This document shows positions 894 to 63,441 of a DNA stretch of 64,000 bases, piece by piece. The notes beneath the pieces are model-generated. The model was not told where the DNA came from and searched no databases. It saw only the letters and a program-made list of their open reading frames with translations. The translations under genes and the position numbers were made by a program. The stretch comes from a virus (Duplodnaviria; Heunggongvirae; Uroviricota; Caudoviricetes), in IMG/VR virus record IMGVR_UViG_3300020048_006428, positions 55,178-119,177 of that record, one strand, 5' to 3'. Each line of letters opens with the position of its first letter. Position 1 is the stretch's first letter.

Positions 894-1418
894 ATGAAAT
901 ACTTAAAATTATTTGAAAATTTCTTTGGTGATGAAACTAAAGAAAAAATATTACGCTTTCTTAAATCTGGTGATTTTTCACTTACAATTCAACTTTGCGA
1001 TGGACAAAATATTGACTTTGATGAATTTATATATGAATATGCAAAGACTAAAAATCCTGATTTATTAGAAGATGATTACATAAATATTTATGTTAATATA
1101 TCTAATGATTATATCAAATCTGAATATATTTGTATAAGACCAAAAATATTTTGTAATGATGGGTTTAGTTTATCTGTTCAAGGCGCATATGGATCATATT
1201 CATGGCCAAGAAAAGATAAAGCTAATCATTATTCTGAAATGGAAATTGGATTTCCATCTGAAAAAGAACCTATTTTAACTGAATATGGAGAAGACCAATT
1301 TGAAGAAGATTCTGATGAATATAGTGATATTTATCCTTATGTTCCAATTGAACTAATAAATAAAGTGTTATTAAAACATGGTGGAATTGACTATGAAAAA
1401 ACACTTGGACAAAAATAA
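894..1418 (+). CDS. Hypothetical phage protein with N-terminal MKYLKLFENF peptide
   Basis: Intact ORF; shared N-terminal motif; C-terminal DGFSLSVQ...EIGFPS...YPYVP...HGGI block. Confidence 0.7.
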   Translation: MKYLKLFENFFGDETKEKILRFLKSGDFSLTIQLCDGQNIDFDEFIYEYAKTKNPDLLEDDYINIYVNISNDYIKSEYICIRPKIFCNDGFSLSVQGAYGSYSWPRKDKANHYSEMEIGFPSEKEPILTEYGEDQFEEDSDEYSDIYPYVPIELINKVLLKHGGIDYEKTLGQK

Positions 1419-1426
1419 ATTAATAT

Positions 1427-2935
1427 ATGTTAAAGAAGTATGATGATTTCTTATTAGAATCTTTATTAATGGAATCTATCTTAGTATATTCCGATGATTT
1501 TAGAAAAATATTAAAAAATGTTGAATCACCAATAGCAACTTATTTATTGGATGCAGAAGATGTAGATTTAGAATTATCAAATAATTATATAGATATATCG
1601 GATAAACCAAACCAAATATCATTTATCAGTGATGAAAAAGGACAAAAATTAGCGAATGATAAAAATATTCAATATATCGGAACAAGTATTAACTATTATA
1701 TAAGTGATTATTTTATAGATGATGTTTGTGTTCCACTTGAATTTGATACTAAGGGTAAGTTTCTTATGGAACTACCAGTTAATTCATCAAACGGAACTAT
1801 TCTAAAAACATTAAATTATGATGGTAAAATTTATTATAAATGTCAATTTGATGATGATATTTATTTATTAAATAGTGAAAACTCAATGATAATTGGTAAA
1901 ACACCATTTAATTCAAATAGGCAGGACATAAAAATAGGAAGAGGAATTAGAGGTATTTTAAACTCTGCTAAAATTAAATATACTGATTCTGAAATAGAAA
2001 CATTTGTTAATAAATATAAGGCTGAAATAGATATATTAAATGATCAATTTAATAATTTTGAATTAACAAGTGGTTATGATATAGCATATTGGTATAATAG
2101 TAATAGATATTATTCAGATAGTGGAACATTAGGAAACTCTTGTATGGCTGATGTTAATAGTGGTAGGTTTGATATTTATTGTGATAATCCAGATGTTTGT
2201 AAGTTATTGATATTAAAACAAGATAAGTCTAAAATAAAAGGTAGGGCATTAGTTTGGAAACTTTCAAATGGTGATACTTTTATGGATAGGGTATATACGA
2301 ATAATGATAATGATTTTGAACTATTCAATAAATATGCTAAATTAAATGGTTGGAAAAGAAAAAAAGCAAATGATAGTTCCACTGATTTTGTGGTGGTTTT
2401 ACCAAATGGTGAAGAAGTTGATAGTGGTTCTTTGAAAATTAATATAAAAGGCGGTAGTTTTGATTATTATCCATATTTAGATACATTTTGTTACTATTAT
2501 TTAAATAATGGAATATTATCAAACAGCGATGATTTAAGGGGTGATTATATAACATTATGTGATGCTGATGATGGTAAATGGAATGAATATTGCTATGATT
2601 GTGATGAAACAGGCATTACAGAATGTGGTAGATGTGAAGGTTATGGAAAAGTAGACTGTGATGAATGTAAAGGTAGCTGTAAAGTAGAATGTTCAGAATG
2701 TGAAGGTAGCTGTAAAGTAGAATGTTCAGAATGTGAAGGTTTTGGTGAAATAGAAGGAGAAGATGGTGAAATGGTAGAATGTTCAGAATGTGATGGTGAT
2801 GGTAAAGTAGAATGTTCAGAATGTGAAGGTGATGGTAAAGTAGAATGTTCAGAATGTGATGGTGAAGGTGAAGTAGAATGTCCAAATTGTGATGGTGATT
2901 GTGAAGTAGAATGTCATTGTAGAGAATCATTATAA
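1427..2935 (+). CDS. 'SCM' paralog family protein with C-terminal DnaJ-like CxxCxGxG zinc-finger repeats
   Basis: Core GTLGNSCM...FDIY...GRALVW...MDRVY...YPYLDTF shared with ORFs at 6224, 52136 and 56422; about 9 CxxCxGxG-type units at the C-terminus. Confidence 0.75.
   Translation: MLKKYDDFLLESLLMESILVYSDDFRKILKNVESPIATYLLDAEDVDLELSNNYIDISDKPNQISFISDEKGQKLANDKNIQYIGTSINYYISDYFIDDVCVPLEFDTKGKFLMELPVNSSNGTILKTLNYDGKIYYKCQFDDDIYLLNSENSMIIGKTPFNSNRQDIKIGRGIRGILNSAKIKYTDSEIETFVNKYKAEIDILNDQFNNFELTSGYDIAYWYNSNRYYSDSGTLGNSCMADVNSGRFDIYCDNPDVCKLLILKQDKSKIKGRALVWKLSNGDTFMDRVYTNNDNDFELFNKYAKLNGWKRKKANDSSTDFVVVLPNGEEVDSGSLKINIKGGSFDYYPYLDTFCYYYLNNGILSNSDDLRGDYITLCDADDGKWNEYCYDCDETGITECGRCEGYGKVDCDECKGSCKVECSECEGSCKVECSECEGFGEIEGEDGEMVECSECDGDGKVECSECEGDGKVECSECDGEGEVECPNCDGDCEVECHCRESL
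2591..2920 (+). repeat. ~33-bp tandem coding repeats (VECSECEGDGK-like zinc-finger units)
   Basis: Repeated gtagaatgttcagaatgtga seen directly. Confidence 0.9.
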
Positions 2936-2993
2936 CTGAGTTCTACCAAATCCAAAAGATTTGATTCGATGATCAGGTCTGTTTTTAGCAATT

Positions 2994-3036
2994 AAAAATT
3001 AGTCTGATATATTAAATTATATCAGACTAATTTTTT
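2994..3036. terminator. Bidirectional intrinsic terminator
   Basis: aaaaattagtctgatata-loop-tatatcagactaatttttt between convergent genes. Confidence 0.8.
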
Positions 3037-3928
3037 ATATACCTTTAAAAATATGGCTTATTACATCAACTGTCCAACCATTACCTAACATTCTATATCT
3101 TTGTGTATCACTTAAACCTTTTGTGTATTGTTCAGGAACAGTTTGTAATCTTTCACATTCTAATGGTGTAAGTCTTCTAAATCCACTTTCGCTTTCTTCA
3201 CAAATTATATATGGGCAATGTGGTGGTTGTTTATAATAAGATGCTAATAATGGTTTTGATTTTTCATTTAAAGTATTATGTTTCCATTTATAACTTTTTA
3301 AGAAGGCTAAATGATGTTTAAATGATAAATGATATTTTTTATCAACTGAATCTTCAATAATATCTTTTAAAGTTTCTTTATTAGTAGGTAGTTCTTTTAT
3401 TGGTATATTAGTCCAATATAAACGTTGTCTATTTTGTGCAGAAAATAAATTGCTATTTATTAATATAGGTTCTATATTTAGAATACTTGATATTAATTTT
3501 TTCCATTTATTTTCCATCTTAACATTTTCTAAAAGGAAATATTTTGGTTTAACTTCATTTAATATTCTTATATATTCCCAAAATAAATAAGATTGTCCAT
3601 CAAATTCAAATCCTGTATTTTTTAAATCTAAATATTGTTTTAATGATGTTATATCTATACTATCCTTAGTTACCATTCCTTGTCTTTTACCTGCAAACGT
3701 GAAATTTTGACAAGGACTACCACCAAACATTAAATCTATTTTTGGTAATTCAAATCCGTTTACTTTAGAAACATCACCTAATTGTATAGTATTTGGATAA
3801 TTATTTTTAGTGACTTGAGTAGCATATTTATCTATTTCAGATGCAAAATAATTATCGTATTTTATACCTAATTTATTTAAAGCTATCTGTCCACAGGACA
3901 TACCATCAAAAAGACTTAATATATTCAT
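3035..3928 (-). CDS. DNA (cytosine-5) methyltransferase
   Basis: Motif I LSLFDG, motif IV GGSPCQ, motif VI LENV, QNRQRLYW, motif X LGNGW. Confidence 0.92.
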   Translation of the reverse strand: MNILSLFDGMSCGQIALNKLGIKYDNYFASEIDKYATQVTKNNYPNTIQLGDVSKVNGFELPKIDLMFGGSPCQNFTFAGKRQGMVTKDSIDITSLKQYLDLKNTGFEFDGQSYLFWEYIRILNEVKPKYFLLENVKMENKWKKLISSILNIEPILINSNLFSAQNRQRLYWTNIPIKELPTNKETLKDIIEDSVDKKYHLSFKHHLAFLKSYKWKHNTLNEKSKPLLASYYKQPPHCPYIICEESESGFRRLTPLECERLQTVPEQYTKGLSDTQRYRMLGNGWTVDVISHIFKGI

Positions 3929-4365: not shown

Positions 4366-4370
4366 ATATA

Positions 4371-4859: not shown

Positions 4860-4883
4860 TTAAATAATTATTTTTTAGTAAAA

Positions 4884-4911
4884 ATTATATGGTTAATTTT
4901 AAATTTGTTTA
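4884..4911 (-). promoter_or_regulatory. Putative class-II promoter TAAAC-N17-TATAAT
   Basis: Reverse strand taaac aaatttaaaattaacca tataat; the motif recurs before at least 8 non-structural genes. Confidence 0.6.
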
Positions 4912-4915
4912 AAAA

Positions 4916-7951: not shown

Positions 7952-10165
7952 TTAATACCAATTTCGACCATTCAAATTCTTCATCTCCTTAGCATATTTC
8001 CTTTGCTTATTTATTTTTATAATACTTGAATAGTCAATTCCTTCAACATAATCAACCTGTTTTATATAACTATTCCACAATAATAATTTATCATTAGAAA
8101 TGTTTTTATTTGCATAATCTTCAACCATTTCCCTAAATTCATATTTAGAAAATACACTAGCCCCATTTATAAGAGTCATTACTGTATCATCATTTCCAAT
8201 ATCAGCAGCATATCTTATGTTTCCTGATGGGGTTATGTGTTTAACAAATGTTGTTATTTCATTTATATTTTCTTCATTTGAAATAATAAAATTCTTTTTA
8301 CCCATTGCTTCTTGGTAATCCTTAACCAACATGTTTTTATTGTCACCTATCTTTATACCAATTTTTTCTTCTAAAGCATCTGCTCTATGTTTATATCTAA
8401 AAAATATATTTGAACCATAATTATTTCTACCTTCAAATAAATGTGGTAAATGCGCCAATAATTCATTTCCATATGTGTTTATTTCTAAAACAACCTTGAA
8501 ATTTTCATTATTGAAATATTCAAATGCTAAAACATAAAATAATTCAGCTAACTGTTTAACAGAAACTAAATTGGATCTATATATACCAATCTGTTGCAAA
8601 CAAAAGAAATCTGATAAATGTGTATATGTTGATTTTTGCATTTCTATCAACTCATCTGATTTTTCTTTTATCTTAAATATATTCATAATTGAATAATCCT
8701 GTCCTAAACCTTCTGATAAGTCAATAGATATTATACCACTAACACTATTACGCATTAATGGACTAAATACATCATCATCTTGGATCCATTTTAAATCTTT
8801 ATACGAAAATTTTAATCTATTACTAAATTCAGTCAATTCTTCATATTCATAATGCTTCTTATTGTTTATCAAATTATCTATTATAGCTTCACTTAATAAC
8901 GATCTTGTTGCATTAACAAATCTTAATCCATATTCTTGATTAAAAGCATCTTCCCCACCAATATCCTTAATAGCTTCTTCTTTCCAAGTTGTTACTTCTG
9001 CAACCGCTCTAATTGGAATTAACATACCATCTTCCCTTGTAATTTGGAATTGTTTAGCTAATTCATCAGTACAAAATTCATTGTTATATATGTATATAAC
9101 ATCTTTCATTAAATCCGGTATATATTTAACTTCAACCTTAGTTAACTCACCAAACGCTTCTTTTACCTGTTCAAATATCGTATCTTTATCTAAATTATTT
9201 TCATACATTAAATGTGGATTTAATCTGAAATATGTAACAAATCTACCCTTAACCTGATACCAATAAACACGCATTGCTTTATAGTTATTCTTTGATGGAT
9301 CACCATATGGTCTTTCAGCATCACTTAATAATTTATGAAATAAATTCATACCATTTGGGGTGGATGTAATTACAATCTTTGAATTGTTAATAGCAGATAC
9401 AGTTGGGAATGCTGCTGTATAATAAGGTTCTATAATATTACTTGGAATATGCGCAAATTCATCCAGATACAAAAAGTCAATAGTAAAACCAATTGCTGGT
9501 GTCTTACTTCTTGCTGATGATTTTATTCTGCACCCATTCTCAAAAATCATTGTTCTTTGATTCCAGTTCTTTATACCAGATTTTAAGAAAAAAGGTAATA
9601 ATGAATAGATAGACTTAATCTTATCAATAATTTCAATAGTAGTACCCGCTACATTCGCTACAATCATTATATTCTTATCATTGTTGAATATAACGAAATG
9701 TAACATTGTTATGGCAGCATTTACTGTATTATGGCTTAATATACCATTTGTGTAAAATCTATGATCTTTGTGGTCTATACTTAAATCAAACATAGAAACA
9801 CTATTACTCTTCTTTATTATATTTTTAATTGATATTAAACCATCATCAGTTTGTATAACATCACCAATCTTTAAATCTTTACAAAATACTTGATTATAAT
9901 CTTTATCAAATAATATATGATTATCTGCACATTCAATATTATATCCATTTTCTAACTCTATTAAATAAATCTTATAAGGTTGTGTTATATGAATATCTGT
10001 TGCTTTAACATAGCCATCATCAGATTTTACTAATAAGGTTAAATTAGATATAGTATTTAATATTTTTTTTGAAATATCATCTTCATCCAACTTTAAGTTT
10101 CTATATTCATATCTTTCAATTAATTGAATTATATAATATATTATTTTAATAATAATTTTAAACAT
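7952..10165 (-). CDS. Terminase large subunit (T4 gp17-like), C-terminal part, preceded by the C-half of a split intein
   Basis: Walker B YLDEFAH, ITSTPNG, FNQEY, nuclease DLSEGLGQDYS and DDTVM; residues 1-146 are intein-like and end in SHN/T. Confidence 0.92.
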   Translation of the reverse strand: MFKIIIKIIYYIIQLIERYEYRNLKLDEDDISKKILNTISNLTLLVKSDDGYVKATDIHITQPYKIYLIELENGYNIECADNHILFDKDYNQVFCKDLKIGDVIQTDDGLISIKNIIKKSNSVSMFDLSIDHKDHRFYTNGILSHNTVNAAITMLHFVIFNNDKNIMIVANVAGTTIEIIDKIKSIYSLLPFFLKSGIKNWNQRTMIFENGCRIKSSARSKTPAIGFTIDFLYLDEFAHIPSNIIEPYYTAAFPTVSAINNSKIVITSTPNGMNLFHKLLSDAERPYGDPSKNNYKAMRVYWYQVKGRFVTYFRLNPHLMYENNLDKDTIFEQVKEAFGELTKVEVKYIPDLMKDVIYIYNNEFCTDELAKQFQITREDGMLIPIRAVAEVTTWKEEAIKDIGGEDAFNQEYGLRFVNATRSLLSEAIIDNLINNKKHYEYEELTEFSNRLKFSYKDLKWIQDDDVFSPLMRNSVSGIISIDLSEGLGQDYSIMNIFKIKEKSDELIEMQKSTYTHLSDFFCLQQIGIYRSNLVSVKQLAELFYVLAFEYFNNENFKVVLEINTYGNELLAHLPHLFEGRNNYGSNIFFRYKHRADALEEKIGIKIGDNKNMLVKDYQEAMGKKNFIISNEENINEITTFVKHITPSGNIRYAADIGNDDTVMTLINGASVFSKYEFREMVEDYANKNISNDKLLLWNSYIKQVDYVEGIDYSSIIKINKQRKYAKEMKNLNGRNWY
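9728..10165 (-). mobile_element. Split intein C-fragment (146 aa)
   Basis: Block B-like ECADNH, DLKIGD, block F MFDLSI, block G FYTNGILSHN followed by +1 Thr. Confidence 0.88.
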
Positions 10166-15805: not shown

Positions 15806-16312
15806 ATGAAAAAAATATTATTTATAATAATGTTGTTCATATACAACAATGTTAGTTCACAAATAGTTCCAACATTACCACAATATTTTATTGTTGATGG
15901 TGATACAATTGGTATAACATTTAGTATAAAGCAGGTTCAGCAGATTGATAATGATTTGGAATTATTGCAATTATTGGAATATAAATCATTGAGTTGTGAT
16001 ACAATGGTTAAAAATTATATAAGAGTAATAGATAATTATGGTAGGGAAGTAGCATTATTGGAAATTAAAATAGATAATTTAGAAAAAAAAGATGTAGAAA
16101 GTGATAATTTAATAAAGAATCTAAATAATCAAATAGATAATTATAAGAAAGAATTAATATTGGCTAAAGAACAAGAAGATAATTATAAGAAAATTGTTTC
16201 AAATAATGAAAAAAGAATTAGAAATTTAAAGCTACAAAGGGGTTTGATATTTGGTGGTGGTATAGTTGGAACAGTTGGTGGAATATTAATAGGTGTATTT
16301 TTAATAAAATAG
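15806..16312 (+). CDS. Secreted/membrane coiled-coil protein (spanin-like candidate)
   Basis: Signal-peptide-like N-terminus, coiled coil, C-terminal Gly-rich transmembrane segment. Confidence 0.5.
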   Translation: MKKILFIIMLFIYNNVSSQIVPTLPQYFIVDGDTIGITFSIKQVQQIDNDLELLQLLEYKSLSCDTMVKNYIRVIDNYGREVALLEIKIDNLEKKDVESDNLIKNLNNQIDNYKKELILAKEQEDNYKKIVSNNEKRIRNLKLQRGLIFGGGIVGTVGGILIGVFLIK

Positions 16313-18625: not shown

Positions 18626-19429
18626 CTATCCTTTTTTATTTATAAATGATAATATATGAGAAATTATATCAACAGTCCAACCATTACCAATATGTTTTAT
18701 GGATTTTGATTTTGATAAAATTTTTGTATATCCTATTGGTAAAGTTTGTATTTTTTCACATATTTCTGGTGTGAATGATTCTTTTGTTCCATTTCTAAAT
18801 ATAAAGAAATTGTGTTCCCAACCACTAGTTGTTATTGTTGGTGACTTTCCTTTATATTTTTGTACACCACCTTTATTATATCCTCTTGGATATACCCATA
18901 TTCCATCATATTCGCCAATTATGTCTTTCAACATTATGTTTCTATCTTTTGGTATTTCAACATTTGGTATATTTGTCCAATAAAGTCTTTCTCTATTTTG
19001 CGCACTAACCAAACTACTGTTTATTTTAATTGGTTCAACATCCAAATGTTGGGAAATTATATCTTGATATTCTTTTTTCATTTTATTATTTTCTAAAAGA
19101 AAATATGTTGGTTTACATTCATTTTTTATTCTAACGAATTCAAAAAATAATTTACTTCGTGGATCATCAAAATTTAATTGTTTTCCCGCAAAGCTAAAAC
19201 CATGACAAGGAGATCCACCAATTAATAAATCTATCTTTGGTAATGTATTTACATTTACGTTTATAACATCACCAATCTGTATAGTATTTGGATAATTATC
19301 CTGGGTTACTTTAATTGCATATTTATCTATTTCAGAAGCAAAGTAATTATTTACTTTTATTCCTATACGTTCCAATGCTATTTGTCCACAACTAATGCCA
19401 TCAAATAAACTTAATACATTTATTCCCAT
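18626..19429 (-). CDS. DNA (cytosine-5) methyltransferase (second paralog)
   Basis: LSLFDG, GGSPCH, LLENN, QNRERLYW, IGNGW. Confidence 0.9.
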   Translation of the reverse strand: MGINVLSLFDGISCGQIALERIGIKVNNYFASEIDKYAIKVTQDNYPNTIQIGDVINVNVNTLPKIDLLIGGSPCHGFSFAGKQLNFDDPRSKLFFEFVRIKNECKPTYFLLENNKMKKEYQDIISQHLDVEPIKINSSLVSAQNRERLYWTNIPNVEIPKDRNIMLKDIIGEYDGIWVYPRGYNKGGVQKYKGKSPTITTSGWEHNFFIFRNGTKESFTPEICEKIQTLPIGYTKILSKSKSIKHIGNGWTVDIISHILSFINKKG

Positions 19430-28368: not shown

Positions 28369-28410
28369 GATTATATTTTTTTAATATATAAATAAAAATT
28401 AAAAAAAAAT

Positions 28411-30123
28411 ATGTCTTCATATAATCCATTAAATAATCAAGGTCAAAGTTCAGGTTATATATCATCCGCAATAGAAAATAAAGGTTTGTTCAATAGACTA
28501 CTTAGAAGCCTAAGTAGTTTTGGTATGAAATATGATGATATGATAATGCGAAATACTGTTGGTGTTGGTGTTAATGAAGATCCTTATGCTCAGAAAAATT
28601 CAATGTATGATTTTTTCAGTCAAAGGGCAGTTGCATCTGTTTTAAATAAAAAATCAATACCTTACTTAGATAGATCATATCCAGATAAAAGAAGAATATT
28701 AAGAGAATATTCAATTAAAGATGAGTTGAGGGATTTTATTTCTTCAATTGCTGATGAATGTATTATATACAATGATGAAAAGGATTTTTGCTCACCTAAA
28801 CCATTATCAAATGAATATGCACAAGATATAAAAGATAAATATCAAGAATATTTTGAAAAATTATATAATCGTTATGGATTTGGTGATAATATAACCGCTT
28901 GGAATATGATGAAAGATTTCTTAATTGATGGTTATGTTGCAATAGAAATAGTTTGGGATGATAAAAAGAAAAATATAGTTTATTTTAATAGATTAAGACC
29001 AGAAACATTAGTTCCTGCTTATGAACCTGCTATTGGTAATTTATGGTTGCAATATCCAGAAGACCCACAATTAAGAAGAATTTTCTTAGATTCGCAAATT
29101 GTATTTGTATCATATTCAACACAAAATGATTATAGCGAAACATCATATCTTGAAGGTCTTATTAAGCCTTATAACCAATTAAAGATATTGGAACAAACAA
29201 GAATAATGTTTAATATTATTAATGCAACTGTATATCAAAAATTTACAATTCCTATTAAAGGATTGCCAAGACAAAGGGCAGAAGAACAAATAGGTCAATT
29301 AATAGCCGATTATTCAGAAGAAATTGAATGGGATGATACATTGGGAACTGTTACAGTAAATGGTAGAAAACACCTACCATATAATAAACAAGTTTGGTTT
29401 CCTGAAGGTGATGCTGGAACACCTGCAATGGAACTTGTTTCACCAGAAGGTCATAATCTAAATGAAAGTGATATGCTAACTTGGTTCTTTAATATACTTA
29501 AAAGGGCTACTAAAATACCTTTTCAAAGATTTGATAAAGAAAGTGGCGGTGGTAATATTGTTAGTGATGCTGCTGAAATGACAAGGGATGAGGTTCAATT
29601 TCATAATTTTATAAATAGAATAAGAGCAAATTATAAAGAATTGATTGTTAAGCCATTGAAATTGCAAATGTGTATGGAATTTCCTGAACTTAAAGATGAT
29701 GAAATTTTCTTAAATCAAGTTGATATTGTTTTTAATTCAAATCAAATATTTGAAGAATGGAAAAAATTAGCTAATTTGGAAAAAAGATCTACTATATTAA
29801 GTACTTTATTAGGTATTCAAACAGCAGATGGACAACCATACTTTCATATTGATTATCTTATTGATAAAATAATGAAATTAACCCCAGAAGAAATAGAAGA
29901 AAATAAAGCATATTGGATAAAAGCTGCACAAGGCGGTGGTGCTGCTGAAGGTGCGCAAGGTGGTGAAATGGGTGGTGAAATGGGTGCTCAAGGTCAAGGA
30001 GCACAAATGGGCGCACAAACCGGAATGGAAACTGGCGCACAAGGTGGCGCACAAGGTGGCGCACAGACAGGAACAGAAACCCCACCTGCTGATGAAGGTG
30101 GTGGATCAGAATTTGAATTTTGA
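28411..30123 (+). CDS. Portal protein, T4 gp20-like
   Basis: IDG, SYLE.LIKPYNQLKILE, KGLP..RAE, W.PE...GT..E, KIPFQR, TRDEV.F..FI.R.R; Gly/Ala-rich acidic tail. Confidence 0.92.
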   Translation: MSSYNPLNNQGQSSGYISSAIENKGLFNRLLRSLSSFGMKYDDMIMRNTVGVGVNEDPYAQKNSMYDFFSQRAVASVLNKKSIPYLDRSYPDKRRILREYSIKDELRDFISSIADECIIYNDEKDFCSPKPLSNEYAQDIKDKYQEYFEKLYNRYGFGDNITAWNMMKDFLIDGYVAIEIVWDDKKKNIVYFNRLRPETLVPAYEPAIGNLWLQYPEDPQLRRIFLDSQIVFVSYSTQNDYSETSYLEGLIKPYNQLKILEQTRIMFNIINATVYQKFTIPIKGLPRQRAEEQIGQLIADYSEEIEWDDTLGTVTVNGRKHLPYNKQVWFPEGDAGTPAMELVSPEGHNLNESDMLTWFFNILKRATKIPFQRFDKESGGGNIVSDAAEMTRDEVQFHNFINRIRANYKELIVKPLKLQMCMEFPELKDDEIFLNQVDIVFNSNQIFEEWKKLANLEKRSTILSTLLGIQTADGQPYFHIDYLIDKIMKLTPEEIEENKAYWIKAAQGGGAAEGAQGGEMGGEMGAQGQGAQMGAQTGMETGAQGGAQGGAQTGTETPPADEGGGSEFEF

Positions 30124-30124
30124 T

Positions 30125-30155
30125 AAAATGGATCAAGCTAACTTGATCCATTTTT
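30125..30155. terminator. Intrinsic terminator after the portal gene
   Basis: aaaatggatcaag-ctaa-cttgatccattttt. Confidence 0.75.
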
Positions 30156-33706: not shown

Positions 33707-35863
33707 ATGAAACCAATCCTTATTGTTGAAAACAATGCTAATCCTTTAAGGGAAAGTGTTATTGGTTCGGGTAGTAAAAAAGAATATTTATTAGGTGGTA
33801 TATTTACCGAGTTTAACGTGAAAAATCGAAATGAACGTATCTACACAGCCGATAAATTCTTGCCTTGCTTACAAGAACTAAATGAACGTATTGTTAATAT
33901 GGGTGTCGTGTATGGTGAGTTTGATCACCCCGACGTCTTCGACACCTCGTTGTCAAGGGCATCACACATTATAACAAAAGCTTCTTTTGTTAAAGAATCA
34001 AATCGTGTTGATGGTCAGATTAAATTATTAAATACTTATTGGGGTAAAGAAGCTAAATCATTGGTAGAAGATGGTTGTCCAGTTTTTGTATCTTCAAGAG
34101 CTGCTGGTGTAACTGAATCTGATGGTACAGTAACATTGAAAAAACTATTCACATATGATATAGTTGCTGATCCTGGCTTTGCATCAGCTAAAATGAGTTC
34201 CATTAATGAATCTTTTGGATTCACAAATAAAGCTAACTTTAGGATATACGAAATGTCCGACGAGTCAAAAATAAATAACCTTTTCGACATGAACAAAAAT
34301 GACTATGTTACAAAACAGCAGTTGTCAGACTATTCTAAGTATTTAGTTACTGAAATAGCTTCTACTAAGAAAGTTGCAAACAATGCTATTAAGACCGGTA
34401 ATCTTTCACCAAGAAAATTGGATGAATTACTTGGTTACTATGAAGAATTAAATAAAACAAATACTCAAATGGTTAAATATTTGGATTATTTGGCTGAAAA
34501 AGTTCAAGTAGTAGTAAATGAAAATAAATCATTGAAGAATACAACTAAGAAGTTGATTGATCACAATGATTATTTGGCTGAAAGTTTAGAAAAATCTATT
34601 AACTATACTGAATATTTAGCAGAAACAGTTGATAAGAACATTTCTTATTCAGAATACTTAGCAGAAACAGTTGATAAGAACATTTCTTATACTAAGTATA
34701 TTGCTGAAAATGTTGATAAGAACATTTCTTATTCAGAATACTTAGCAGAAACAGTTGATAAGAATATTGCTTATTCAGAATACTTAGCAGAATCAGTTGA
34801 TAAGAATATTGCTTATTCAGAATACTTAGCAGAAAGTCTTGATAAGAATATTGCTTATGCTGAATATATTGCTGAAAATCTTGATAAGAATATTGCTTAT
34901 TCAGAATACTTAGCTGAAAATTTAGATGGTTCAATTGCTTATTCAGAATACTTAGCAGAAAACGTTGATGGTAACATTGCTTATTCAGAATATATTGCTG
35001 AAAATTTAGATGATAATATCGCTTATTCAGAATATATTGCAGAAAGTCTTGATAAAACAGTTTCTTATGCTGGTATGATTTCTGAAAAATTGAATGGTGG
35101 TAAATTAAATGAAAGTTTTGGAAAAAGCAAATTCCCAACATTAGAAAACGCTGGTTTTGAAATGGTTGAAGAAGAAGAAGAAGATAATCATTATGATGAT
35201 GATATGAATTATGGTGATAATAATATGCCACAATTGAATGCTCAAACAAGAAATCATGAATATACACAAGATGGTGAATTTGATGATGAATATTTTGATG
35301 AAGAAGAATGTGATACATGTGATGATGAAGAAGAATTCGGTGGTGAATCTGATTCTGCATTATCTCAGCAAATAGACACATTAATTGAAGAAGCTAGAAA
35401 ACGTAAGGTTTCTGAAACTAATGATTTACACTTTTTAAAATTTTTGAATAAATCCCAAGTTAATAGTTTTTACGAATTAACAAATGAGGAACAAGAACAA
35501 GTTAAACTTCATATAAACGAAAGAAGCTATTTTACAAGTTCAGAAGTATTAACAATGATTCAAGAATCATTATCAACTAAAAATGAATCTTTGGAAGAAA
35601 GATTGATCAGATTGATGCCTGATAACATTAAGCCAATCTGGTTACAAATGAATGAATCTTCTAAAAGATCTATCTTGTCACAAGCTAGACTTTACACAGA
35701 CTTAACAACTGAAGCAAAAGTTGATCATTTCTGGGCAACAAGAGAAATCAAAAAGAATCAATCAGTAACAAAAAAATTGATTACACACGAACCAATTATC
35801 CAAGAAGATAAAATATCAAATTCTGATATGCATGCTATCTTAGAAAGATTCAAAAGTATTTAA
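33707..35863 (+). CDS. Prohead protease (T4 gp21-like) fused to a repeat-rich scaffold/core region
   Basis: N.N.R.Y, GEFDHP, SH.I, T..GK, VSSRAAG, TYDIVADPG; followed by 14-aa repeats and an acidic linker. Confidence 0.9.
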   Translation: MKPILIVENNANPLRESVIGSGSKKEYLLGGIFTEFNVKNRNERIYTADKFLPCLQELNERIVNMGVVYGEFDHPDVFDTSLSRASHIITKASFVKESNRVDGQIKLLNTYWGKEAKSLVEDGCPVFVSSRAAGVTESDGTVTLKKLFTYDIVADPGFASAKMSSINESFGFTNKANFRIYEMSDESKINNLFDMNKNDYVTKQQLSDYSKYLVTEIASTKKVANNAIKTGNLSPRKLDELLGYYEELNKTNTQMVKYLDYLAEKVQVVVNENKSLKNTTKKLIDHNDYLAESLEKSINYTEYLAETVDKNISYSEYLAETVDKNISYTKYIAENVDKNISYSEYLAETVDKNIAYSEYLAESVDKNIAYSEYLAESLDKNIAYAEYIAENLDKNIAYSEYLAENLDGSIAYSEYLAENVDGNIAYSEYIAENLDDNIAYSEYIAESLDKTVSYAGMISEKLNGGKLNESFGKSKFPTLENAGFEMVEEEEEDNHYDDDMNYGDNNMPQLNAQTRNHEYTQDGEFDDEYFDEEECDTCDDEEEFGGESDSALSQQIDTLIEEARKRKVSETNDLHFLKFLNKSQVNSFYELTNEEQEQVKLHINERSYFTSSEVLTMIQESLSTKNESLEERLIRLMPDNIKPIWLQMNESSKRSILSQARLYTDLTTEAKVDHFWATREIKKNQSVTKKLITHEPIIQEDKISNSDMHAILERFKSI
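34604..35065 (+). repeat. 11 tandem 42-bp repeats encoding YSEY(L/I)AE(N/S/T)(L/V)DKNI(A/S)
   Basis: Seen directly, with degenerate units on each side. Confidence 0.95.
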
Positions 35864-35955
35864 TCTATAAAAAATCCACCCTTTAAAAAATTGATATTTA
35901 GGTGGTCAATATATACAGTATAGATTAAACAAACAAAAAAAAATTATTTAAAATT

Positions 35956-37734
35956 ATGTCAAACATTAGAATAGACAAACAAAAAGCTTTAAAGAAATGG
36001 GCTCCAGTTTTAGAAAATATGGGCGTTGCAGGAGATGAAAGACTCGACTGGATGTCAGAACTAGCTGAATACCATTCAATTAACGAAAACGCATATGTAA
36101 ACGCAGCTAACGCTGGTATGGGTAGTGTAGTAGGTGCTCAACCATCAGTTTATGCAGGTTCAACAAACTTTACTGCTAATGCAGTTAATCAAACTAACCA
36201 ATATGCTAGTGCATTAGGTAACTTAGGTTCAGGTGATGTTGGTCAAAACATGTTGCCAGTTGCAATGAAAATTGCTGCTCAGACAATCGGTCTTGATTTA
36301 GTATCAGTTAAACCAACACCAGGTCCAAAATTAGACTTGCTTTATATTGACTTCCAATATGATGATGTTGATACAACACAAGCTAATCCAGTTGTATTTA
36401 AATACACAGATGTACAACTTCTTTCATATAGAGCTTCTATCCGTGCTTTTATGGTAGCTAATAGCATTGTTGAAACAACAGGTGGTCTTGCATTCGGTTC
36501 AACAACAGGTGCATCAGCTAGAATATTTGTTAATATTGCAACTGGTGTTCCAACAATAACTGCTCCTGTTGCTACTGGTGACAAACAAAACATTGTAGAA
36601 TTCTTAGGTTTCTCACGTATTGATGGTCAATTGATGTTTAGAGCTTACAGACAAGCTAACGCTGTTGGTAATTTTAGTTTATCATCAAGTTCACCTTATG
36701 CTGCACCTTATGCTTGGGATCAAACACAGAATACGTTCTCACCAACAAATTCTATGGTTTCTCAAATTGATTTCTTACCATTTGCTACAACTGGCTTTAC
36801 TGCTTCTGGTGCTACTGCTACAACAGCAACTGATCAAGCAATCAACTTGATTTCTGCTTTAGAAGACCACTTACCTGGTTTTTCAACTAACTTCTCTGCA
36901 AACTCTAAAGGTGGATTGTATCCAATGTCAAGAGCTGAAGATGATTTATCTTATGCAGGTGTAATCGGACCAAAAGTATCTACTAAGTCAATTGCAGTTG
37001 GTACTATCGAAGTTTCTTCTGTTCTTAGAAGAACTGAAATTGAAGACATCAAAGCTAACACAGGTATGGATATCGTTCAAAAAATGGAATCAATCCTTGT
37101 TAATGAATTGTCACAAACAATTTCTAAACAAATCGTAGCTAAAATCTTTGAAATGGGTGATCTTAACAGAACTTCTGCACCTACATTCGGTGGAACTGCT
37201 ACAATTACAGGTCATACAGTATTTGACTTAGATACAAATTATGCAGCAGCCGGTCCTGGTGGTGAAACTACACATTCTATCCAACGTAAACTTATTACTA
37301 AGATGGTTCATGCGTCTAACTTCATTGCAACAGAAGGTCGTGTTGGTCCAGCACAATTCGCTGTAACTAACGGAGCATTGGCAGCAACTTTGATGGATAT
37401 TTCAGGTTATACAATTAATCCTGTTAAATCTAAAATGAATGCAGCAGGTCAATTATATCCAGTAGGTCAAATCGGTGATATGCAAGTATATGTTGATCCA
37501 TATATGAAATATAATGACAACCGTATCGTTATCGGTAGAAAGAACAATCCCGACCAACCTGGTATCTTGTTTGTTCCTTACTTAATGGCACAGTCAATAA
37601 GCATTATATCTGAAGCGACATTCGCACCAAGAATGTTATTGCGTTCAAGATACGCAGTCGCAGAAGTTGGTTGGTATCCACAAAAACAATTTATGACAAT
37701 TGTTGTTAAAGATACTAATAGCTATCTTAACTAA
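35956..37734 (+). CDS. Major capsid protein, T4 gp23-like
   Basis: KW.PVLE, P.A..I.AQTIG.DLV.V.P, E..QTI.KQI, G.IG...VYVDPY, PG..F.PY, F.PR....SRYA; high-expression codon usage. Confidence 0.93.
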   Translation: MSNIRIDKQKALKKWAPVLENMGVAGDERLDWMSELAEYHSINENAYVNAANAGMGSVVGAQPSVYAGSTNFTANAVNQTNQYASALGNLGSGDVGQNMLPVAMKIAAQTIGLDLVSVKPTPGPKLDLLYIDFQYDDVDTTQANPVVFKYTDVQLLSYRASIRAFMVANSIVETTGGLAFGSTTGASARIFVNIATGVPTITAPVATGDKQNIVEFLGFSRIDGQLMFRAYRQANAVGNFSLSSSSPYAAPYAWDQTQNTFSPTNSMVSQIDFLPFATTGFTASGATATTATDQAINLISALEDHLPGFSTNFSANSKGGLYPMSRAEDDLSYAGVIGPKVSTKSIAVGTIEVSSVLRRTEIEDIKANTGMDIVQKMESILVNELSQTISKQIVAKIFEMGDLNRTSAPTFGGTATITGHTVFDLDTNYAAAGPGGETTHSIQRKLITKMVHASNFIATEGRVGPAQFAVTNGALAATLMDISGYTINPVKSKMNAAGQLYPVGQIGDMQVYVDPYMKYNDNRIVIGRKNNPDQPGILFVPYLMAQSISIISEATFAPRMLLRSRYAVAEVGWYPQKQFMTIVVKDTNSYLN

Positions 37735-40474: not shown

Positions 40475-41419
40475 TCAACTATACTCATAGTTTTCGAATT
40501 TCTTACTATTTAATCTTCCTTTGATTGTTGTTTGGTGAATTCCTAATATATCAGATGCTTCTTTAAGTGTTCTATATTCTACACCATCTATCTTGAATGG
40601 TTTATTGTGTTTACACTTTTTACCTATTTGTGGCTTTGATAACCTTTCAGATTGTTCATCTTCCGAATAAGAAATTTTAATTTCATTCTTATATGAATAT
40701 TTTTTGTATTTTGGATTTTTACTCAATATTCTCCATCTTATTGTTGTAATCGGAATGCCAAGTTCTTTATTAGCTTTACCCAAAGATTCATATTCTACAC
40801 CATCTATTAAAATGGGAATATTTTGTTCACCAAAGTATTTACCATTTCTAACTTCTGATAAGTGTTTTTTTGTCACTATTGTGTGACTTTTACCAAAAAA
40901 TGGATTTTTGTTACCACTTCGGTCTCTGCATTTTGAACAAGTTTTAGCTGTATTATCTTTTATTTCACCACATTCACAATATGATTTAGAAACACCACCT
41001 TTCCAATTAGGATTTTGTTCTAAAGGCTTTGAATATTTTTCCTTTTTTTCCAAATCAGACATATTTTGGTATTTATTAATTAAAGATATGCGCATTTTTT
41101 CAATTATATGTTGTCTATTTGGATTATTAGAAATATTATCACCACCAGAAGAAGATATACCTATATTATATTTAGGTTTTAAATCCAAATATTTTTGCTC
41201 AAATTGTTTAAGATGTTCAACATCACAAATTTCAACAATTTCAAAAATAAAATTATCTTCCCCATATTTTTGCCAAGCTCTTGTTAATATTATATTTATG
41301 TGTTTGTTATTTCTTAAATCATTTTTATGTCTGGTCCATCTTTTTTCAATATTTTTGGATGATCCATAATAACAATCATTTGTAATTAAATTTCTTATTC
41401 TATAAATTCCTGACTTCAT
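40475..41419 (-). CDS. GIY-YIG homing endonuclease with NUMOD3-like repeats
   Basis: SGIYRI...YYGSS....R...H, EQKY, YN; NPFFGKSHT; IDGVEY..L..A repeats. Confidence 0.9.
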   Translation of the reverse strand: MKSGIYRIRNLITNDCYYGSSKNIEKRWTRHKNDLRNNKHINIILTRAWQKYGEDNFIFEIVEICDVEHLKQFEQKYLDLKPKYNIGISSSGGDNISNNPNRQHIIEKMRISLINKYQNMSDLEKKEKYSKPLEQNPNWKGGVSKSYCECGEIKDNTAKTCSKCRDRSGNKNPFFGKSHTIVTKKHLSEVRNGKYFGEQNIPILIDGVEYESLGKANKELGIPITTIRWRILSKNPKYKKYSYKNEIKISYSEDEQSERLSKPQIGKKCKHNKPFKIDGVEYRTLKEASDILGIHQTTIKGRLNSKKFENYEYS

Positions 41420-41478: not shown

Positions 41479-42627
41479 CTAATTTGATAATTCCCCTTTT
41501 ATAGCAGGTCCGGACTTATATCCAACTAATTTTATATCATCATATTCAATATCAAAAATAGATTTATTACTAATTTGTATAGTTGGTAGTTTAAATGTAG
41601 GTAAATTAATTTGAAGCTTTGCTTGTTCTATGTGATTTAGATATATATGCGCATCACCAATTGTAACTATCAAATCGTCCGCAATCATATTTACTTCTTT
41701 TGCCAAGAGATGAAGTAAGGTCGAATATGATGTGCAATTAAAAGGACACCCTAAAAAGACATCATTTGATCTGATATTGACTTTCAAACTAATTTTTCTT
41801 TTTGGAAAATTCAATTTATCTAATTTTTCCCATGTCATATCATCACCATATGAAATATTCTTACTTAAACTTTCACACCATTCTTTTATTCTTTCTTCTT
41901 CTGTCATTTCATAAGTGTAACATTGGAAAAAGTTATGGCACGGCCTCAATACCATGTTTTTCAAATCAGCCACATTCCATGCTGAAACAATTAATCCTCT
42001 ATCATCTGGATTTATTTTAAGGTCATTGATTAGATTTTGAATCTGATCAATTGGTTTTCTTCTTAAGATATCGGATTCTTCTAATATTAGTGTCTTTGAA
42101 GAAAAGTGTTGTCCTATTTCTTCGTAGTTTTCCCAATTGCGCCATTGTTGCCCATACACAGGACCGAGTTCACCCCATTTTTCAGCAAATTCATTATCTG
42201 TTTTAATTTTGTTGATAAATTCTTCTTTAGATAATCTTTCAAGAATCGGATATCCACTTTGTTTGTCTGTTTTATTAATCCAAGTCATACATTTCTTCAT
42301 AGGATCTGAATCTGAACCAATTATATGTTGTTTTGGTGTATTTTTTTCATATGCTTTATAGGCATCACCATCCCAAATATGAACACCATTATCAATTAAA
42401 TATTTTATATTTGTTTGTCCACGAAGAAACCAAATTAATTCATGAACTACACCTTTGAAAAATACTTTTTTTGAAGTTAGTATTGGGAATCCTTCTTTCA
42501 TATTAAATCTCATAGTATAATCAAAAACTGAAATTGTTCCAGTTCCGGTTCTATCTTTTTTTACTCTACCATTTGTTAGAATATGTTTTAGTAATTCTTT
42601 ATATTGTTTGTCTACTGAATTATCCAT
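41479..42627 (-). CDS. thyA: Thymidylate synthase
   Basis: DRTGTGT, ELIWFLRG, LGPVYG.QWR, SAWN, LRPCH, RSND.FLG.PFN, GDAHIY.NH. Confidence 0.95.
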   Translation of the reverse strand: MDNSVDKQYKELLKHILTNGRVKKDRTGTGTISVFDYTMRFNMKEGFPILTSKKVFFKGVVHELIWFLRGQTNIKYLIDNGVHIWDGDAYKAYEKNTPKQHIIGSDSDPMKKCMTWINKTDKQSGYPILERLSKEEFINKIKTDNEFAEKWGELGPVYGQQWRNWENYEEIGQHFSSKTLILEESDILRRKPIDQIQNLINDLKINPDDRGLIVSAWNVADLKNMVLRPCHNFFQCYTYEMTEEERIKEWCESLSKNISYGDDMTWEKLDKLNFPKRKISLKVNIRSNDVFLGCPFNCTSYSTLLHLLAKEVNMIADDLIVTIGDAHIYLNHIEQAKLQINLPTFKLPTIQISNKSIFDIEYDDIKLVGYKSGPAIKGELSN

Positions 42628-54333: not shown

Positions 54334-55026
54334 TTATTTATTTATTTTTTCATCTAATAATTTAGCCACATTACTTCCAATCATAAAGTGTATATTTTGT
54401 AATGTATCACTTTCAATTGTTTTATATTCATCTAAAAATCTAAATTGGAATGTGTAAGTATCATATACTTCATCCTTTTTTCTTTCATTTTTAGATATTG
54501 ATAGGAATATTCTATAATTGTTATTTATATTTATTTCAAAATCAAATGTTATTTTATCACATGGTGTTGTTTTGAATTTTGGTTCATATTTAACTTCATA
54601 TATAGAATAATCAGTTATTTTAGCTCTTTTCATATAATAATTTAAAAACATTGCTGGTGCTTCAATAAAATCTGATAGGATTTGTAAATCTTCGCCAAAA
54701 TCATTAGATATAACAATATCTTCAATTTTTGACTTTAAATCAATTACATTTTTAAAATCCATTTTATGATAAACGCAATCAATATCATAAAGATATATGA
54801 AAGCATTTTCAACTATATTTCTTTTTTCCAAATCTGTTTTGAATATAAATTTGGTGTGTATTATTAAGGTATCTTCAATAGATAAATTATGAATTGATAT
54901 TACCAATTTATAATATTTTTCGTCTTTATCCATTTCATAGACAGTTTCAACTGAACTTACTCTACCTTCTTCTTCTTCAAAGATTTCTTTGAATGTTTGT
55001 TCTATTTCCGATATTTTAATTTTCAT
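54334..55026 (-). CDS. Hypothetical protein
   Basis: Intact 230-aa ORF. Confidence 0.65.
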   Translation of the reverse strand: MKIKISEIEQTFKEIFEEEEGRVSSVETVYEMDKDEKYYKLVISIHNLSIEDTLIIHTKFIFKTDLEKRNIVENAFIYLYDIDCVYHKMDFKNVIDLKSKIEDIVISNDFGEDLQILSDFIEAPAMFLNYYMKRAKITDYSIYEVKYEPKFKTTPCDKITFDFEININNNYRIFLSISKNERKKDEVYDTYTFQFRFLDEYKTIESDTLQNIHFMIGSNVAKLLDEKINK

Positions 55027-55613
55027 ATATATGTGTAACCTTCTATTTTTTGTGGTAATTCTACTGATTGTTTATAATATTCATTAAAATCTTTTAAAGC
55101 ATCTATTAATCTATGCTTAACTATTTTACAATCCTTTCTTAAAAAATTATATGTTTCCTGATATTCTTCAAAAAACTTAATATCACCAAACATATTAATT
55201 AAATCTGCTACTTTCGTATCCATAAAGAATATACGATTAGCTAATCCATTTGAATTAGCTAATCCATTTAAATCAGCTAATTCAAAATTATATCCAATAT
55301 TTATAAAATTTTTTATTTCTTTTGGGCACCCTTCTAAAGTAGTTAAATAATTAGAAGAGCAATCAAAACTATCACCAACATAATTTGGACACCCTTCTAA
55401 TGTAGTTAATTGATTATCTGAACAATCAAACCAACCAGAAACTCTATTAAATTTCAGGGGCATTTCTTTTAATTGCATATTACATAACCAAACTGTACCT
55501 TCCACATCAATACTTCCATCTGAATTTATGGTATAGTTTTGAATGTTATATTTTTTACAAATATCATCAATTTCTGATTTATTAAAGTTTTCAAATAATT
55601 TTAAGTATTTCAT
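55023..55613 (-). CDS. LRR-like paralog family protein
   Basis: Start reassigned to MKYLKLFENF at 55613; same termini as 13908, 22795 and 23439. Confidence 0.78.
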   Translation of the reverse strand: MKYLKLFENFNKSEIDDICKKYNIQNYTINSDGSIDVEGTVWLCNMQLKEMPLKFNRVSGWFDCSDNQLTTLEGCPNYVGDSFDCSSNYLTTLEGCPKEIKNFINIGYNFELADLNGLANSNGLANRIFFMDTKVADLINMFGDIKFFEEYQETYNFLRKDCKIVKHRLIDALKDFNEYYKQSVELPQKIEGYTYI

Positions 55614-60570: not shown

Positions 60571-60582
60571 TTTAAGTATATA

Positions 60583-60611
60583 TAAACAAATATAGGAATA
60601 TAAAATATAAT
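60583..60611 (+). promoter_or_regulatory. Putative class-II promoter TAAAC-N18-TATAAT
   Basis: Upstream of the helicase gene. Confidence 0.55.
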
Positions 60612-60633
60612 AATTAACAATAAATTATAAAAA

Positions 60634-62286: not shown

Positions 62287-62750
62287 TGGTAGATTTAAAA
62301 TATGTAAAAGGAAGACGACTAATTGACTTTTTCAATAGTGAAAATTATGAATTTGATATTCTATACAATGTTAAATTTGTTTATGAAAGTGAAGAAATCA
62401 ATGAAGAAGGTTTTTATTTGTATTTTTCAATAGATGGTTATTATAATAGAGTTATGTCAAATTACGTAAATGTAGATAAAAATGGTGTAGTTTTTTGTTG
62501 TGTAGCAGAACCATATAATAATAGTTCTGAATATGAAGAAATTGAAGAAGCAACTAAATTATATTTAAACAATCTTGAAATTGATATAAGAGATAATAAA
62601 CTATCAGAAGTAATTGATTCTGAAGAAGAAATAATAAATAGATATAAATCAATTATTTTATCTAAACTTAATAGTATTTCTGATTTAGTAAATAAATGTA
62701 ATGATATTAATACATTGAAAGATATTGATGATAGATTAATTGAAATATAA
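62286..62750 (+). CDS. Hypothetical protein
   Basis: Coupled to the helicase gene. Confidence 0.6.
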   Translation: MVDLKYVKGRRLIDFFNSENYEFDILYNVKFVYESEEINEEGFYLYFSIDGYYNRVMSNYVNVDKNGVVFCCVAEPYNNSSEYEEIEEATKLYLNNLEIDIRDNKLSEVIDSEEEIINRYKSIILSKLNSISDLVNKCNDINTLKDIDDRLIEI

Positions 62751-62786
62751 TAAAAAGCCAATCAAATTTGATTGGCTTTTTATTAT
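62747..62786. terminator. Bidirectional terminator (AAGCCAAT family)
   Basis: ataataaaaagccaatcaa-at-ttgattggctttttattat. Confidence 0.8.
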
Positions 62787-62787
62787 T

Positions 62788-63441
62788 TCAACTATCAAAT
62801 TCAACTTTAAATTGAAGGACTGCAAATGGGTGAGTACCAAAACAATCGTAGGTTGACTTTATTATATAAAATACGTCTATATTTTTGTCACAATATAGTT
62901 TTTGGAACATCTTAAAAATAGATTTAGTCATTTGAAATATCATTTTTCTTTTTTCTATCATATTAACAAATGTTCCGCTGTTTATAGGTCCATCATGTAT
63001 AAAATCTTTTGTGAAGTTACAATCCAAAGAAATTTCAAAGTAAATACCATCTTTATTTGTAGATTCTTTTACTGACTTGGCTTTCCATAAATCATCTATA
63101 TTATCATCTATATCATCAATGAAGTAAAAAGGATTTTGTTGAAATTCACCATTTGATATTAAACAATACTCAAAATTACTAAGAAAATAAAAAAGGTTAT
63201 TTTTTGAAATAGATTTATTCCAATCTTGTAGTTCTATACTTTTTATTTTACCCATATCAATATGTGAACTTAGATATGTATTTTCTATTTCTTCATAAGT
63301 TATTTTTGATTCTAAATGTTCTTTGATATAGTTTTGATATAATTTTATATAATTAACAACAATAAACTTTGGTTCAACCAATTTAGATTCATTTATAAAA
63401 ACAAATTGTTCAAACAGCTTTATGTATCTTAATTTTTTCAT
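62788..63441 (-). CDS. Hypothetical protein with YIKLFEQF..INES N-terminal motif
   Basis: Shared motif. Confidence 0.65.
   Translation of the reverse strand: MKKLRYIKLFEQFVFINESKLVEPKFIVVNYIKLYQNYIKEHLESKITYEEIENTYLSSHIDMGKIKSIELQDWNKSISKNNLFYFLSNFEYCLISNGEFQQNPFYFIDDIDDNIDDLWKAKSVKESTNKDGIYFEISLDCNFTKDFIHDGPINSGTFVNMIEKRKMIFQMTKSIFKMFQKLYCDKNIDVFYIIKSTYDCFGTHPFAVLQFKVEFDS

Follow-up and report, generated by a model that had tools for sequence, protein, structure and literature searches.

The first ten residues of the bacteriophage T4 internal protein IPIII are enough for encapsidation; within this capsid-targeting sequence (CTS), residues 4 and 7 serve targeting and residues 8 and 10 serve processing (PMC9026906). 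Cleavage by the T4 prohead protease gp21 occurs after L/I-x-E and is abolished by Asp at position 10, which leaves targeting intact (PMC9026906). Further facts for the comparison with T4 were taken from PMC3012670 and PMC5694885, and the T4 sequences from AF158101. In phiKZ-like giant phages (SPN3US, phiKZ, and 201phi2-1), head and ejection proteins have long N-terminal propeptides, and the proteases are of the S80 type (PMC5694885). Here we describe an N-terminal peptide of 10-16 residues, hereafter the tag, which heads about one gene in six of the virus record IMGVR_UViG_3300020048_006428 (276,400 bp, 25% G+C; hereafter G000). A 64-kb stretch inside this record (the window, positions 55,178 to 119,177) was the starting point, and coordinates are those of the window unless marked G000. 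Our own set of open reading frames (ORFs) comprised 352 in G000 and 76 in the window. The CheckV completeness of G000 was 47% and its record class was 'provirus'; because of this incompleteness, counts given per genome are counts per fragment, and G000 is therefore probably about half of an uncultured phage of ~600 kb. A first-pass annotation of the window had proposed that about 22 unrelated proteins share a capsid-targeting-like start, by which enzymes and repeat proteins are loaded into the head and injected. Its portable N-terminal module, the link to an upstream element (TAATATATA), and the T4-type portal, protease, and capsid proteins were borne out, while the unrelatedness of the 22 proteins and the enzymatic nature of the load had to be trimmed. 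Our results show that this N-terminal tag is genuine, can head different bodies, is kept by purifying selection, and lies outside the fold.

All 22 starts named in the first-pass annotation translate as written, and the two that it called weaker variants (50646 and 59011) are indeed weak. The strict form of the tag, MK[YH][LI][KR]x[FY][EN], heads 27 of the 352 ORFs of G000, against 0.003 expected when the first 24 residues of each protein are shuffled. With a broad definition made up of five patterns, the number of ORFs rises to 52, and shuffles give 1.5 (maximum 6), so that shuffled N-termini do not reproduce the frequency of the motif and a chance origin is ruled out by the counts. Away from the N-terminus, the broad definition gave 13 internal matches in 75,734 positions; a position matrix at a threshold of at least 12 bits gave 32 N-terminal matches and no internal one. 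The tag forms include MKYLKLFENF and MLKKYDDFLLESLLMES, and several tags are offset by 4-14 residues from residue 1. In the window, the broad definition covers 19 of the 76 ORFs. The shared start of the 22 listed proteins was therefore upheld, but their bodies, clustered by BLAST after removal of the first 20 residues, form 16 clusters and not 22, with four genes being leucine-rich-repeat (LRR)-like paralogues and four belonging to a KYDDFLLES family. As had been stated, replication and metabolic genes lack the peptide: the window genes identified by Pfam as family B DNA polymerase, helicase, thymidylate synthase, clamp loader, C5 methylase, and glycosyltransferase are all untagged.

The 52 tagged proteins of G000 represent 34 body clusters, including a 15-member LRR-like family, a 7-member KYDDFLLES family, and 27 singletons. 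Two untagged LRR-like paralogues (G000 190924-191304 and 207391-207828) begin exactly where the body of 13 tagged siblings starts, and one orthologue of the family of the 1427 gene has MRFLKLFENFFLNES, a tag of the other class, instead of MLKKYxDFLFES on the same body. Identity among the 13 tagged LRR paralogues is 93% in the tag, compared with 60% in the body. The tag codons of these paralogues differ by 1.32 synonymous and 0.74 non-synonymous changes per pair, and synonymous variation in tag codons is plain (TAC/TAT 17:9, AAC/AAT 12:6, TTC/TTT 10:16). The upstream DNA of tagged genes has only a promoter box in common. A repeat at the DNA level is thus ruled out by free synonymous change and unshared upstream DNA. 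The protein encoded at 17004 has 1157 homologues, and among the matches listed 120 of 120 orthologues (63-74% identity) start with M[KRQ][YH][LI]Kx[FY][ED]x[FYH], followed by a variable linker of 4-8 residues and a highly conserved body. Similarly, the 1427 family (601 homologues) keeps M[LI]KKYxDF[LI][FL]ES[LI][LI]xES, in which E16 and S17 are invariant. Pure paralogy was rejected on the basis of the 120 listed orthologues and of a tag more conserved than the LRR body. The same observations bear on the possibility that the shared start is a functionless leftover of gene duplication or promoter-cassette shuffling. Two large paralogue families make up 17 of the 52 tagged genes and many tagged genes lie in tandem arrays, as such a leftover would predict, but the singleton bodies, the lack of upstream conservation beyond the promoter box, the retention of the tag in the 17004 orthologues, its greater conservation than the LRR body, and its presence ahead of differing bodies in dozens of further viral contigs leave this explanation close to refuted and very improbable.

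AlphaFold models built from deep alignments placed the tag outside the folded bodies. Residues 1-16 of the 17004 protein and residues 4-16 of the 1427 protein had predicted local distance difference test (pLDDT) values below 50, while the bodies reached 80-97; the 1427 body was confident from residue 17, and the folded bodies begin at residues 17-19. These low-pLDDT residues are nonetheless conserved in the alignments. As judged from the two models, a tag that is conserved yet unplaced is the usual signature of a partner-binding short linear motif. A Sec, Tat, or lipoprotein signal peptide was considered and rejected, since the tag is amphipathic, 10 residues long, and without a hydrophobic core of at least about 10 residues. 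A transmembrane-like window occurs in 3 of the 52 tagged proteins and never inside the tag, and the true lipoprotein-like signals of G000 (e.g., 15806) look unlike it. A long propeptide of the phiKZ/SPN3US type was also rejected, since the folded bodies start so early and the candidate cleavage sites are hydrophobic-x-E.

The tagged genes are tied to the element TAATATATA, which lies 4-29 nucleotides (nt) ahead of start codons and is directional, standing within 60 nt upstream of 84 ORFs in sense and of 33 in antisense. It had been reported ahead of most of the 22 window genes or their operon leaders, and we found it within 60 nt upstream of 12 of them, or 17 when leaders are counted. It had also been placed before the portal and capsid genes; this holds for the portal gene (TAATATATA at 28382-28390), while the capsid gene is preceded by AATATATA (35908-35915). 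In addition, TAATATATA precedes gp15-like, baseplate-wedge-like, and very large structural genes, and it is not present ahead of the genes for DNA polymerase, helicase, ribonucleotide reductase, and thymidylate synthase. From this association with structural genes, we infer that TAATATATA is a late promoter. Counting leaders, 45 of the 52 tagged ORFs of G000 are in TAATATATA units compared with 87 of the 300 untagged ones (odds ratio 15.7, p = 3e-15), in agreement with the first-pass annotation, and the tagged ORFs in such units cover 30 of the 34 body clusters. A tie to a single promoter class could also mark an expression or stability element, either a ramp in the first ten codons for ribosomes independent of Shine-Dalgarno sequences (as in Bacteroidota) or an N-terminal stabiliser or degron timing late proteins. 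The invariant second codon AAA, the AT-rich codons, and the preference for TAC and AAC over TAT and AAT fit such an element. Nevertheless, the amino acid changes within the tag are conservative (Y/H, L/I, K/R, F/Y) at freely changing synonymous sites, conservation extends to residues 7-10 and to the hydrophobic-N-E site behind them, and the offset tags lie beyond the very start. Moreover, the highly expressed structural proteins (capsid, portal, sheath-like), the most abundant late proteins, are untagged, which speaks against a plain expression element, and we consider this explanation improbable.

The resemblance to the T4 CTS was closer than the first-pass annotation had seen. Its starting point, that IPII and IPIII begin with MKTYQEFIAE, is correct for both proteins in the T4 sequence. 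A pattern built solely from the four T4 IPIII positions, [YF]xxF[ILVM]xE, was scored in the first 22 residues and found in 10, 7, and 33 proteins of G000 and two relatives, G012 (281 kb) and G021 (complete, 675 kb), respectively, against 0.7, 0.7, and 2.0 in shuffles (10-16-fold). All four positions (Y4, F7, I8, E10) are fitted by KKYDDFLLES (1427 and 53791) and by MKIKKYLDFIAE (G000 45105). The common viral form MKHL-KTFESFLNE/A aligns with T4 M-KTYQEFIAE/A. Two aromatic positions are conserved in every tag class, with a spacing of +4 (Y3, F7) followed by Phe10 in the main class.

The proteins of a T4-type head are encoded in the same window (Table 1). The protease domain aligns with T4 gp21 over residues 1-134, and its GEFDHP and VSSRAAG stand opposite the His and Ser motifs GELNHP and VSSRGLG of T4; when the capsid and protease sequences were searched against those of PDB with phmmer, neither had a match. 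The many LxE/INE sites ascribed to the protease-scaffold protein are present: it has an INES (residues 166-169, nt 34199-34213) and about twelve [LI]AE[STN], and an acidic tail follows its repeat region. The 675-kb relative G021 has the same protease-scaffold layout at 62% identity; YSEYLAE[STN] occurs about 11-14 times in the scaffold part across G000 and G021, and S-[IL]-N-E-S lies behind the protease domain in both. The SINE/N noted near residue 44 of the capsid protein is likewise there, at Glu44. All 15 capsid proteins compared, the present one and those of 14 further tag-bearing records, keep H-[SKNQ]-[ILM]-[NY]-E-[NDGS] near this residue, and its Glu is the last before the conserved GSGDxGQNLLP core. 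In these 15 proteins, the stretch aligned to the T4 gp23 cleavage site is variable, Glu-free, and rich in Gly, Ser, and Pro; the only conserved Glu nearby is that of HSINEN at residue 44. Similar sites follow the tag. Hydrophobic-N-E stands behind it in most MKH[LF]KTFESF proteins, hydrophobic-x-E occurs within residues 5-26 of 47 of 52 tagged and 147 of 300 untagged proteins, and hydrophobic-N/A-E is enriched 4-8 times in tagged proteins.

The exact start MKYLK[LF]FENF was found in 36 IMG/VR stretches on ~28 contigs, ahead of different bodies that include SET-domain, HAD-like, and ADP-ribosyltransferase (ART)-like ones, and MKH[LF]KTFESF in 26 further stretches. A fully codon-degenerate MKYLKLFENF pattern had no match in 185,579 prokaryote genomes, and the tag is virus-specific. 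In G012, 32 of 394 ORFs are tagged; in G021, the same patterns find 37 tagged ORFs, with ~30 more of T4-like form. The tag-bearing records are mostly fragments with a completeness of 3-30%. Of the 54, 21 encode a capsid protein of the Gp23 type; the two records with a completeness of 98% or more (675 kb and 465 kb) are among them. The HK97-type Phage_capsid family was found in none of the 42 tag-bearing records tested. In GenBank, the 17004 protein matched only four uncultured huge phages and no cultured one.

The tagged proteins have a median length of 195 residues. The 22 window bodies and 10 more from G000 gave no Pfam match above curated cut-offs. At E values of 1e-4 or below, only ~9 of 137 non-redundant tagged proteins (G000, G012, G021, and other contigs) matched a family, these being ankyrin repeats, SET, ART-PolyVal, ASCH, DUF5824, DUF7448, L5_gp82, and DUF5872; replication, nucleotide-metabolism, and tail families were absent from the Pfam matches of the 137. 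Foldseek gave weak matches for the 17004 model (nicotinamidase/isochorismatase, E ~0.015, also described as cysteine-hydrolase-like) and for the 1427 model (a DnaJ/BSD2 zinc finger and, weakly, a GNAT fold). With so few family assignments, the enzymes of the proposed load are only weakly supported.

Taken together, there is about an even chance that the tag is a T4 CTS-like capsid-targeting peptide with proteolytic trimming, used on a scale without precedent. Core binding, cleavage, residence in the virion, and injection are steps that we infer, and they would proceed as follows. Promoters of the TAATATATA type would co-transcribe tagged and virion genes. The amphipathic tag (Lys2, an aromatic residue at 3, Phe7, Phe10) would dock the new protein on the prohead core, which here would be the scaffold region fused to the gp21-type protease. 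Once the shell is closed, the protease would make its cut at the tag or shortly behind it, after a Glu that stands in a hydrophobic-x-E context and usually in hydrophobic-N-E or hydrophobic-hydrophobic-E-S, and the mature protein would thereby be freed inside the head. The cargo could then exit with the DNA at the next infection. That the tagged proteins are in fact injected as effectors is the more doubtful part of this proposal, a possibility rather than an expectation.

Several observations weigh against capsid targeting. To our knowledge, the packaging of ~17% of all gene products in one head is without precedent. Only 15 of the 52 G000 tags have hydrophobic-N/A-E within residues 5-24; in MKYLKxFE, Thr or Lys often stands three residues ahead of Glu8, which is itself replaced by Asp in some 17004 orthologues; at the T4 cleavage position, Asp blocks cleavage (PMC9026906). 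Because residue -3 is often not hydrophobic in the commonest tag form, MKYLKLFENF, and the Glu is sometimes Asp, the cut may lie not at Glu8 but at a later hydrophobic-N-E or hydrophobic-x-E site. Neither gp23 nor gp20 nor the protease was seen in the tag-bearing relatives G012, G015, G026, and G028 (170-280-kb class), which are probably incomplete records, because G012 has a T4-type baseplate wedge and the homing-endonuclease family of G000, and the completeness of G000 is no more than 47%. The strict tag is missing from the cultured Tenacibaculum jumbo phage PTm1, which, unlike G000, also has no excess of the T4-like pattern. Finally, the tagged proteins are acidic (median pI 4.8 vs 6.5, p = 3e-10), unlike the basic T4 IPII and IPIII.

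The acidic cargo bears on two further explanations. The tag might dock on a common partner other than the head interior, such as a phage chaperone, an unfoldase or protease adaptor, a modifying enzyme, or an external virion site displaying LRR and ankyrin proteins. A short linear motif outside the fold fits any partner, acidic cargo rich in repeat proteins suits this idea, and relatives encode an AAA+ 'ATP-dependent protease'. We rate it as rather unlikely, as no alternative partner gene was identified in this analysis, and the T4 CTS determinants, the hydrophobic-N-E common to capsid and protease, and the restriction to gp23-type phages point to head machinery. Alternatively, the tagged proteins could enter the prohead as filler of its core or scaffold, in the manner of the acidic T4 proteins gp67 and gp68, and be cut up and expelled or retained rather than injected as effectors. 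In T4, core proteins undergo cleavage at L/I-x-E and are for the most part expelled (PMC9026906, PMC5694885). A capsid for ~600 kb would need a very large core, and acidic bodies would suit it; however, these bodies are confidently folded and include conserved domains (ART-PolyVal, SET, ankyrin, a cysteine-hydrolase-like fold), and 34 unrelated families are hard to account for as filler, which makes this role improbable.

If the tag does load the head, it would offer a listing of virion-delivered proteins of uncultured megaphages from sequence only. Such proteins would meet the host before any phage gene is expressed and would be prime candidates for counter-defence or host take-over. T4 capsid targeting would then be old, widespread among gp23-type heads, and scalable to a large share of the proteome, which would help explain the purpose of huge capsids and of hundreds of orphan genes; the tag with its protease site could also serve as a portable packaging signal for work on these phages in laboratory strains. 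Tentatively, a clade of T4-headed phages of ~170-675 kb, probably on Bacteroidota, might have generalised T4 capsid targeting, with one tag and protease site loading 50 to more than 100 fast-evolving proteins (ADP-ribosyltransferase, SET, ankyrin, LRR, and hydrolase-like). These would be co-injected as a pre-made effector arsenal with a breadth like that of bacterial secretion-system effector sets. Even with a different partner, the tag would still identify a large group of co-regulated proteins with one common interaction.

The tagged genes and the head module of the window are listed in Table 1. The nearest GenBank capsid proteins belong to uncultured phages of 630-735 kb (LR745206, LR756502, and LR756501; 49-65% identity), and identity to the capsid protein of Lak phages is 28%. 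Lipoprotein-like or Bacteroidota-type signal peptides were observed in G000 at 15806-16312 and in several ORFs outside the window, e.g., MKKILFIIMLFIYNNVSSQ. Relatives also carry lipoprotein-type and FSQ-type signal peptides, and these signals in G000 and its relatives suggest a host in the Bacteroidota. Genes of an eight-member HNH/homing-endonuclease-like family, some of which include a Mom-like region, are interspersed among those for portal, protease, and capsid (24490-25998, 30138-30557, 30595-32040, 32037-33596, and 37838-39730). Three ORFs group together in relation to the large terminase subunit, either as pieces of it or as its paralogues (7952-10165, G000 125627-126790, and G000 182856-183593), and the C5 cytosine DNA methylase has three paralogous genes (3035-3928, 18626-19429, and G000 180555-181403). 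A GIY-YIG/I-TevI-like endonuclease gene adjoins the thymidylate synthase gene (40475-41419 and 41479-42627).

Table 1. Tagged genes and T4-type head genes of the window (lengths in amino acids, aa).
Feature	Position	Strand	Remarks
Tagged gene, MKYLKLFENF, 174 aa	894..1418	+	Body without Pfam family; second gene of a TAATATATA-led unit
Tagged gene, MLKKYDDFLLES-LLMES, T4-like Y..F[L].E pattern, 502 aa	1427..2935	+	One of seven paralogues; C-terminal DnaJ/BSD2-type zinc finger
Tagged paralogue of 1427 family, MKNIKNYELFLES, 569 aa	6224..7933	-	TAATATATA directly upstream
Variant tag, MKHLMSINEM, 86 aa	12437..12697	-	TAATATATA upstream; has I-N-E site
Tagged gene, MKHLKTFESF, 261 aa	12746..13531	+	
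Tagged gene, MKHLKTFEAF, 100 aa	13596..13898	+	
Tagged LRR-like paralogue, MKYLKLFENFNQSE, 197 aa	13908..14501	+	
Tagged gene, MKHIRKFESY, 191 aa	16370..16945	+	
Tagged conserved protein, MKYIKLFENF, 209 aa	17004..17633	+	Tag, variable linker, weakly nicotinamidase/isochorismatase-like body
Tagged gene, MKYLKTFNES, 180 aa	18059..18601	+	
Tagged LRR-like paralogue, 215 aa	22795..23442	+	
Tagged LRR-like paralogue, 183 aa	23439..23990	+	Start overlaps end of 22795 gene
Variant tag, MKNVRRFNEE, 102 aa	26149..26457	+	
Tag offset six residues, MTNKNF-KIKKFFEN, 152 aa	44267..44725	-	
Tagged gene, MKHLKNYRLFEN, 147 aa	45325..45768	-	
Weak candidate, MALKKFIDILKEN, 117 aa	50646..50999	+	Unmatched by the tag patterns
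Tagged paralogue of 1427 family, MINKYDDFLLES, 551 aa	52136..53791	-	
Tagged LRR-like paralogue	55023..55613	-	Tag from ATG at 55613, internal in the longest ORF
Variant tag, MIKKFFEFNEF, 250 aa	55615..56367	-	
Tagged paralogue of 1427 family, MIYNYNDFLLES, 373 aa	56422..57543	+	
Weak variant, MLIIYNYDDIIFER, 298 aa	58115..59011	-	
Tag offset four residues, then INES site, MKKLRYIKLFEQFVFINES, 217 aa	62788..63441	-	
T4 gp20-type portal, untagged	28411..30123	+	Pfam Portal_T4, E 2e-59
Prohead protease (T4 gp21 / S77-S80 type, residues 1 to ~160) fused to scaffold-like region, 718 aa	33707..35863	+	Pfam S77 and S80
10.9 copies of 42-nt repeat encoding YSEYLAE[STN]VDKNI, each with L/I-A-E site	34610..35068	+	
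T4 gp23-type major capsid protein, candidate maturation site SINE/N (Glu44, nt 36076-36090)	35956..37734	+	Pfam Gp23; alignment to T4 gp23

We found neither this tag nor CTS-like tagging on a large scale in huge phages described in the literature, and three known systems come closest. In T4, the CTS of IPII/IPIII, IPI, Alt, and gp24, removed by gp21, is likewise an N-terminal peptide of 10-20 residues on otherwise unrelated proteins, with Lys2 followed by two aromatic residues; the hydrophobic-x-Glu site at its end has candidate counterparts in many of the tags described here. Head proteins of the gp20, gp21, and gp23 types are encoded here as well, and a subset of the tags matches Y4, F7, I8, and E10 exactly (KKYDDFLLES, KKYLDFIAE). 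The scale is different, since T4 has two genes with an identical CTS and a handful of processed head proteins, whereas here the tag is found on 52-60 of 352 ORFs, from about half a genome. In addition, the main consensus is MK[YH][LI]KxFExF, with an aromatic spacing of +4 and Glu right after Phe; the cargo is acidic, whereas IPII and IPIII are basic and DNA-associated; and the scaffold is fused to the protease. The phiKZ-like phages are similar in that N-terminal propeptides target many head-internal proteins, with more than 50 species per head, in that a diverged gp21 homologue cuts after Glu, and in that paralogues have identical N-termini; one of their ejection proteins has a transmembrane segment just behind the cut (PMC5694885). 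Their propeptides are mostly 80-160 residues long, with a motif S/A/G-x-E and no one common short tag, whereas the tag described here is 10-16 residues long and uniform across families. The polyvalent proteins of phages and conjugative elements embody the same idea of effector domains delivered with DNA, and an ART-PolyVal domain stands behind the tag in G021. In polyvalent proteins many domains are joined in one giant polypeptide, whereas here each domain is a separate small tagged protein.

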